This document shows, piece by piece, positions 31,444 through 32,538 of a stretch of DNA of 64,000 nt. This stretch comes from Escherichia coli. GTDB lineage: Bacteria; Pseudomonadota; Gammaproteobacteria; Enterobacterales; Enterobacteriaceae. The stretch lies in NCBI RefSeq assembly GCF_003790525.1, contig NZ_CP033635.1; one strand, 5' to 3'. A program made the translations under genes and the position numbers. Each line of letters starts with the position of its first letter. Within the stretch, counting starts at the first letter, position 1. The notes under the pieces are model-generated. The model made no database searches. It was given only the letters and a program-made list of their open reading frames with translations, and had not been told where the DNA came from.

Positions 31444-32538
31444 ATGAAAGTTAAAGTACTGTCCCTCCTGGTCCCAGCTCTGCTGGTAGCAGGCGCAGCA
31501 AACGCTGCTGAAATTTACAACAAAGACGGCAACAAATTAGATCTGTACGGTAAAGTTGACGGCCTGCACTATTTCTCCGATAACGACTCTAAAGATGGCG
31601 ACAAGACCTACATGCGTCTTGGCTTCAAAGGTGAAACTCAGGTTACTGATCAACTGACCGGTTATGGTCAGTGGGAATATCAGATTCAAGGTAACGAACC
31701 TGAAAGTGACAATAGTTCCTGGACCCGTGTGGCATTCGCTGGTCTGAAATTCCAGGACGTTGGTTCTTTTGACTATGGTCGTAACTACGGCGTTGTTTAC
31801 GATGTTACTTCCTGGACCGACGTACTGCCAGAATTCGGTGGTGATACCTACGATTCTGATAACTTCATGCAGCAGCGTGGTAACGGTTTCGCGACCTACC
31901 GTAACACCGACTTCTTCGGTCTGGTTGACGGTCTTGATTTTGCTGTTCAGTATCAGGGTAAAAACGGTAGTGCTCATGGCGAAGGTATGACCACTAATGG
32001 CCGTGATGATGTATTTGAGCAGAACGGTGACGGTGTTGGTGGTTCTATTACTTACAATTATGAAGGCTTTGGTATCGGTGCTGCAGTTTCCAGCTCCAAA
32101 CGTACCTGGGATCAGAACAACACTGGCCTGATCGGTACTGGCGACCGTGCTGAAACCTACACTGGTGGTCTGAAATACGACGCTAACAACATCTACCTGG
32201 CTGCTCAGTACACCCAGACCTACAACGCAACTCGCGTAGGTTCCCTGGGTTGGGCGAACAAAGCACAGAACTTCGAAGCTGTTGCTCAGTACCAGTTCGA
32301 CTTCGGTCTGCGTCCGTCCCTGGCTTACCTGCAGTCTAAAGGTAAAAACCTGGGTCGTGGCTACGACGACGAAGATATCCTGAAATATGTTGATGTTGGT
32401 GCGACCTACTACTTCAACAAAAACATGTCCACCTACGTTGACTACAAAATCAACCTGCTGGACGACAACCAGTTCACCCGCGCTGCTGGCATCAACACTG
32501 ATGACATCGTAGCTCTGGGTCTGGTTTACCAGTTCTAA
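31444..32538 (+). CDS. ompC: Outer membrane porin OmpC, 364-aa allele
   Basis: Signal peptide and porin barrel with C-terminal YQF; three residues shorter than K-12 OmpC (367 aa) with substitutions clustered in predicted external loops. Confidence 0.95.

Follow-up and report, generated by a model that had tools for sequence, protein, structure and literature searches.

The ompC Allele of an SMS-3-5-like Escherichia coli Chromosome Is an OmpC20-Class Porin Gene That Differs from K-12 Mainly in Its Surface Loops

The stretch of DNA analyzed here (the window) comprises 64,000 nucleotides of Escherichia coli contig NZ_CP033635.1 (assembly GCF_003790525.1). Its gene order around the porin gene is rcsD-micF-ompC-apbE-ada, as in K-12, with the orientation of the window reversed relative to the K-12 chromosome. 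The genes rcsD (28033–30705, minus strand), apbE/ftp (32650–33705), and ada (33779–34843) were assigned from the list of open reading frames (ORFs) and from K-12 synteny, and the micF small RNA gene (31017–31110, minus strand), which is divergent from ompC as in K-12, scores 116.8 bits with the Rfam model RF00033 (gathering score 79). In the ORF list, ompC (31444–32538, plus strand) is intact, with an ATG start, 364 codons, and a C terminus reading YQF. A consensus scan identified a terminator-like element (32557–32586, plus strand) 19 nucleotides past the ompC stop codon, in which a GC-rich hairpin (32557–32576) is followed by a T-run; a role in termination is putative. A TTG-initiated ORF of 353 residues (31537–32598, minus strand) lies antisense to almost all of ompC, but was rejected as a mechanical ORF within a codon-biased gene, with nothing to indicate a genuine gene.

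The region upstream of ompC carries only eight differences from K-12 in 738 nucleotides. One of these, at 31028, is the sole difference in micF, and two, at 31115 and 31363, are the only ones in the 333 nucleotides of the essentially K-12-like micF-ompC intergenic region (31111–31443); the difference at 31363 is positioned 81 nucleotides upstream of the ompC start codon. By comparison with K-12, this intergenic region is taken to hold the ompC promoter, the 5′ leader, and the OmpR sites.

Over its full 64 kb, the window differs from the chromosome of E. coli SMS-3-5 (NC_010498.1, 2363904–2427903, reverse complement) by three mismatches, at 10595, 19116, and 55152, and the SMS-3-5 record annotates the same gene as porin OmpC (WP_000865538.1). 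Approximately 30 other complete genomes are ~100% identical to the window over positions 20000–44000. Many complete E. coli genomes have an ompC with 100% nucleotide identity to that of the window; from an evenly spaced ranking, ~100–180 records are estimated to carry the identical gene and ~300–400 a 99.5% variant, and at least 1,000 public contigs encode exactly this protein. Across a spread of genomes, ompC ranges from 1092 to 1131 nucleotides in length.

The 364-residue precursor consists of a signal peptide (residues 1–21), with the same sequence as that of K-12 OmpC, and a mature porin of 343 residues; we infer cleavage by analogy with the mature N terminus, AEIYNK, of PDB 2xe2. The protein scores 743.8 bits with the NCBIfam model for porin OmpC (NF007841, cut-off 484) and lies below the cut-offs of both the OmpF model (487.3, cut-off 583) and the PhoE model (469.8, cut-off 599). 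An AlphaFold2 (AF2) model built on 70 diverse homologues from a representative search has a pLDDT of 92.5 and aligns in Foldseek with 2xe2, 2xe5, and 2xe3 at a TM score of 0.97 and an rmsd of 1.9 Å; a model from a five-sequence alignment (the window OmpC with K-12 OmpC, OmpF, PhoE, and OmpN; pLDDT 28.8) was discarded. The retained model is an antiparallel barrel with eight long external loops, eight short periplasmic turns, and loop L3 inside the lumen, and DSSP assigns to it 17 strand segments, supporting a 16-stranded barrel with β1 split between the N and C termini. A functional trimer, with conduction of small solutes, has been shown experimentally for OmpC20, a protein two residues different from that of the window (Lou et al., 2011; PMC3203869). 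The window ompC is an ordinary intact chromosomal porin gene of a common allele type that has already been crystallized.

K-12 OmpC (PDB 2J1N; b2215) is encoded by the same gene at the same locus, with the same micF, rcsD, and apbE flanks. Global alignment of the window protein with that of K-12 MG1655 (367 residues; NC_000913) gives 330 identities, 34 substitutions, and a single three-residue gap. The positions of these differences were checked on two independent topology maps. According to the DSSP assignment on the AF2 model, 29 of the 34 substitutions are in extracellular loops, where 12.4 would be expected (P = 9 × 10−10), five are in strands (V24I, N165D, D205N, G213A, and I215V), and none are in the 31 residues of the periplasmic turns; according to the topology of Beck et al. 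(2016, S1 Fig), 27 are in loops, where 11.4 would be expected (hypergeometric P = 9 × 10−9). The localization of the differences to the loops is thereby confirmed, far beyond chance. A preliminary description, made from the sequence alone, had proposed a loop-altered allele of 364 residues (367 in K-12) on a conserved barrel framework ending in YQF, and this proposal is borne out by the alignment and by both maps: the differences are neither randomly distributed nor confined to strands, the allele is not identical to that of K-12, and the four peptide stretches that the description had quoted are all found in the window OmpC, at residues 46–55, 83–92, 173–193, and 219–233.

The changes are unequally divided among the loops, whose limits are given here in precursor numbering, from DSSP of the AF2 model and the alignment, and with plus-strand window coordinates. 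Loop L4 (residues 172–196; 31957–32031) has ten substitutions and the three-residue deletion, which makes it three residues shorter than in K-12, followed by L5 (220–234; 32101–32145) with seven, L2 (83–91, GNEPESDNS; 31690–31716) with five, L1 (46–55; 31579–31608) with four, L8 (338–354; 32455–32505) with two (D347A and N354D), and the constriction loop L3 (116–144; 31789–31875) with one (G137D, equivalent to G116D in mature numbering). The remainder of the protein is strongly K-12-like: besides the signal peptide, the two proteins are identical at residues 237–346, in the eyelet residues, in the short L7, and at the C terminus. The mature window protein, with a net charge of −19, is four units more negative than that of K-12 (−15).

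Inspection of the constriction zone, using the residue list of Lou et al. (2011; PMC3203869), revealed that all of the basic eyelet residues (Lys16, Arg37, Arg74, and Arg124, mature numbering) and the acidic residues that they face (Asp18, Asp105, and Glu109) are present in the window OmpC, and so are the L3 motif PEFGG, the latch residue Glu66 of L2, and Ser271. The single L3 change, G116D, is located four residues past the PEFGG motif. L3 features of known resistance variants, i.e. the G112D type of Omp36 and the GD/TD insertions of OmpK36, were looked for and none were found, the PEFGG motif being intact and L3 being of the same length as in K-12. Crystal structures of OmpC20 and K-12 OmpC show the same L3 conformation, unchanged by the G116D substitution that OmpC20 also carries, together with a shared minimum radius of 2.9 Å and an identical transverse field, and a pore entrance that is more negatively charged in OmpC20 than in K-12 OmpC (Lou et al., 2011; PMC3203869). 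The pore of the window allele (barrel, L3, charged eyelet, and L2 latch) is conserved under purifying selection.

These observations bear on a possible adaptation of the allele to antibiotics, in which loop and vestibule changes would cut β-lactam entry and would have been selected in multidrug-resistant lineages alongside mutations in the quinolone resistance-determining region (QRDR) of gyrA. The near-identical OmpC20 comes from a multidrug-resistant clinical series; expression of K-12 OmpC in those clinical isolates lowered MICs, and killing by cefotaxime was faster for cells carrying K-12 OmpC than for those carrying the clinical variants (Lou et al., 2011; PMC3203869). The more negative entrance of OmpC20, the charge difference and G116D in the window protein, the gyrA genotype of the strain (S83L with D87N), and the high multidrug resistance of SMS-3-5 point in the same direction. 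Against this, all of the eyelet residues are conserved and G116D lies outside PEFGG, the motif that holds the classical permeability mutations. Permeability effects within the OmpC20 family were traced not to loops but to the pore-associated substitutions D18E (OmpC26), S271F (OmpC28), and R124H (OmpC33), all of which are absent from the window protein (Asp18, Ser271, and Arg124); neither the crystal structures nor conductance revealed a difference in pore size, and the authors, who explicitly gave no interpretation of the differences between K-12 OmpC and OmpC20, did not hold them responsible (Lou et al., 2011; PMC3203869). Moreover, the allele is present in isolates from many nonclinical sources, and the high synonymous divergence of its central block, described below, indicates that the block is far older than the use of antibiotics. 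We therefore consider a permeability adaptation quite unlikely, and the earlier suggestion, which linked loop-altered alleles with altered antibiotic permeability, was not supported here, the transport effects of the family being due to three substitutions that the window allele lacks. A residual hint of better cefotaxime admission by K-12 OmpC than by clinical-type alleles speaks for this minor rival to the reading that the loops have diversified around a conserved pore.

Nucleotide divergence from K-12 is distributed unevenly along the locus, being 1.1% both in rcsD and in the micF intergenic region and 1.55% in the final third of ompC, as against 15.2% over 31444–32150, with a peak of 31% at 31950–32100 (L4/L5). 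Nucleotide and synonymous divergence together delimit a deeply diverged central block (31576–32145, plus strand; codons ~45–234, from L1 to L5) between K-12-like gene ends. Its most divergent part, L4 with L5, has 53 differences in 177 nucleotides (31969–32145), a value reached in none of 200 permutations. By the Nei-Gojobori method, synonymous divergence from K-12 is 0.37–0.87 in the strand segments of the central block (up to 0.9), where dN does not exceed 0.06, compared with 0.03–0.05 in codons 1–44 and 237–364 (center versus ends, Fisher P = 3 × 10−9). This pattern implies that the central block is an old, independently evolving segment rather than the product of a burst of recent replacements.

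The concentration of replacements in the loops would also be expected if the loop differences were recent point mutations, fixed by positive selection in this lineage without recombination, and works cited by Beck et al. (2016) and by a study of E. coli outer-membrane barrel genes are said there to place ompC among the E. coli genes under positive selection. Such an origin is extremely improbable given that 58.7 synonymous differences accompany the 47.3 nonsynonymous ones and cluster with them in the central block, its invariant strands included, that the boundaries of divergence are abrupt, and that a near-identical allele is found in unrelated backgrounds. In the pairwise comparison with K-12, ω is 0–0.07 in strand segments and ~0.75 in L1 and L5; positive selection is not demonstrated by this comparison, in which the loop ω does not exceed 1 and is itself unreliable because synonymous divergence in the loops is saturated.

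The occurrence of the allele in differing genomic contexts is consistent with recombination. The genomes of FDAARGOS_448 and EC16 have the OmpC20 gene, five to six nucleotides away from the window ompC, with five of the differences in one 14-nucleotide patch of L8 (32471–32484) and an extra change in EC16 at nucleotide 159 of the gene; the 3-kb flanks of both genomes are as far from the window as are those of K-12 (98.7%–98.9% identity upstream and 96.0%–96.7% downstream). At ≥99% identity, 518 of 5,430 records match the window over ompC alone, but only 104 do so over the surrounding 24 kb. With its diverged center between K-12-like ends, and with the same allele in unrelated backgrounds, the window ompC is a recombination mosaic, although ancestral polymorphism, rather than recent transfer, could in part account for its presence in different backgrounds.

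The segment adjoining ompC on its downstream side is also variable. From the 3′ half of apbE to the 5′ part of ada (33150–34050), divergence from K-12 rises to 4%–8%, compared with ~1% in rcsD, and the 3 kb downstream of ompC are only 96.0%–97.2% identical to every other sampled genome. The segment at 33150–34050 could be specific to the lineage or else represent a second tract of recombination.

The relationships of the central block were compared in a small panel of 11–12 sequences drawn evenly from the identity ranking. In an 11-allele comparison of the nonloop barrel codons 52–219, the window class is the deepest branch, differing by 7.4%–10.1% from all others, whereas most of the other classes differ mutually by 0%–6%. 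The 3′ barrel of the window allele is ordinary (0.7%–2.5% from all but one panel allele), and across the panel the loop cassettes occur in differing combinations. The depth of the branch, together with the synonymous divergence of up to 0.9, raises the possibility that an import from a different species, of Escherichia or another enterobacterial genus, and not an old allele within E. coli, gave rise to the central block. We regard such an import as unlikely: a degenerate pattern for the L4 peptide is unmatched in 100,044 species, each represented by one genome, so that no external donor is indicated within that set; panel allele L014 branches similarly deeply, so that classes of such depth are typical of the locus; and another class within E. 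coli has the same L5 cassette. A composite of this origin with the permeability proposal can also be envisaged, in which the L1–L5 block would have come from an unsampled donor and then been recombined into unrelated, often multidrug-resistant lineages, where it would allow evasion of phages and contact-dependent inhibition (CDI) and, through an acidic vestibule, lower β-lactam entry. This is highly unlikely in our judgment; if true, the block would be no neutral marker of lineage but a “surface plus permeability” cassette capable of transfer.

Such mosaicism is in keeping with what has been described for the locus. More than 220 OmpC sequences were found to contain 33 types of L4, 30 of L5, and 13 of L7, in many different combinations (Beck et al., 2016), and the study of E. 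coli outer-membrane barrel genes reported mosaic evolution of the ompC variable regions L1, L2, L4, L5, and L7. The genes compared there (fhuA, lamB, ompA, ompC, and ompF) share a conserved scaffold, short hypervariable loop apices, local recombination, and an overlap of the variable regions with phage-binding sites. The window allele is one instance of this pattern and differs from it in nothing of substance. Its L4 sequence is an exact match to a catalogued type, d1, whose listed sequence includes KNGSAHGEG (Beck et al., 2016, S2 Table).

The closest structurally characterized relative is OmpC20 from the clinical isolate 6104H (PDB 2XE2; WP_000865539.1/Q9K597; PMC3203869), which has the same mature length of 343 residues and is identical to the window protein at 341 of them, i.e. 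throughout L1–L7, the barrel, and the constriction zone; only five nucleotides and two residues differ. Both residues are in L8, where the window has Gln343 and Ala347 (precursor numbering) in place of arginine and aspartate in OmpC20, and where the 14-nucleotide patch matches an L8 of the CFT073 type. The differences between OmpC20 and K-12 OmpC were described as being mainly in L2, L4, and L5, with a shorter L4, G116D as the sole L3 change, and the rest at membrane-facing strand residues (Lou et al., 2011; PMC3203869), a structural comparison that holds directly for the window protein as well. The OmpC of CFT073/O6 (PDB 2XE1) has L5 and L8 identical to those of the window protein, but differs from it in its longer L4 (type b1), its longer L7, its L1 and L2, and its mature length of 354 residues. 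The window allele is thus already known, as a member of the OmpC20 class with L4 of type d1, and the localization of its K-12 differences to the loops was published in 2011. K-12 itself represents only one of many allele classes, and it is the use of K-12 as the reference that makes the window allele look unusual; since ompC specifies a hypervariable surface antigen shuffled by recombination, departures from K-12 are the rule at this locus in E. coli.

The preliminary description had further taken the ompC allele, together with the gyrA QRDR genotype, as a sign of a clinical or host-adapted background. The gyrA genotype is real: gyrA (4887–7514, plus strand) encodes S83L and D87N, the classical double QRDR genotype of fluoroquinolone resistance, in a stretch that is identical in SMS-3-5. 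It is independent of ompC. The reading of the ompC allele was not upheld, since the allele is a common natural one, shared at ≥99% by nearly a tenth of the records compared (see above), and comes from many nonclinical sources. Identical loci or gene copies derive from humans, chickens, cattle, dogs, wild birds, a pangolin, fish, river water, and wastewater, and SMS-3-5, near-identical to the window, is an environmental isolate from a polluted site. With identical loci in sources as different as river water, poultry, dogs, and humans, the allele is uninformative as to a clinical background, and neither clinical origin nor porin-mediated antibiotic resistance should be deduced from it.

Taken as a whole, the evidence is best explained by a normal porin of the OmpC20 class that is a recombinational mosaic with a conserved pore and with loops shaped by selection on their receptor role, a reading to which we assign a probability of roughly 0.9. 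The gene is predicted to encode a functional, trimeric, 16-stranded general-diffusion porin in an SMS-3-5-like strain, with outward-facing loops (L1, L2, L4, L5, and L8) that present sequence cassettes other than those of K-12. Homologous recombination among long-diverged ompC alleles within the species would have assembled the allele, joining an old diverged central block to a 5′ end and a 3′ third typical of E. coli, with L5 and L8 in common with the CFT073-type allele. The polymorphism is most probably sustained by loop-docking agents, namely OmpC-dependent phages, CdiA toxins, colicins, and antibodies, which would exert diversifying or frequency-dependent selection, and the probable consequence is an altered receptor specificity with an unaltered pore function.

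The diversifying-selection reading follows from the docking of phage and CDI agents on the surface loops. The role of OmpC loops as phage recognition sites, put forward in the preliminary description, finds support in the literature, which adds CDI recognition epitopes; according to a review passage within the study of outer-membrane barrel genes, L1, L4, and L5 are required for phage T4 to attach and are implicated for other OmpC-specific phages. We infer the selective agents and the phenotype of the window allele from this background; in the best-supported reading, receptor epitopes have long been under diversifying selection while cassettes were shuffled. In practical terms, the allele is a guide to the OmpC-dependent phages, CdiA toxins, or colicins by which the strain might be recognized, and an essentially identical protein has already been solved by crystallography; the import of the finding beyond annotation is small.

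A relative of the window allele, 97% identical to it, is carried by E. coli TUM9754 (NZ_CP128939.1), in which an IS1 transposase gene (2010–2707) is located between rcsD and ompC, ~290 bp upstream of the ompC start; at IS1 the alignment of this upstream region with the window is broken, and the insertion could have disturbed the regulation of micF or ompC in that strain. Elsewhere in the window, a gene for a GntR-family regulator (~908–1650, minus strand) is a frameshifted pseudogene in the SMS-3-5 RefSeq annotation, and the ORF list gives a 232-residue ORF at 908–1606. An ORF of 1539 residues (9890–14509, plus strand), within which the mismatch to SMS-3-5 at 10595 falls, is annotated in the SMS-3-5 RefSeq record as an α-2-macroglobulin family protein with a different start (~1,505 residues). 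The gene for the autotransporter YejO (863 residues; 53263–55854, plus strand) appears intact.
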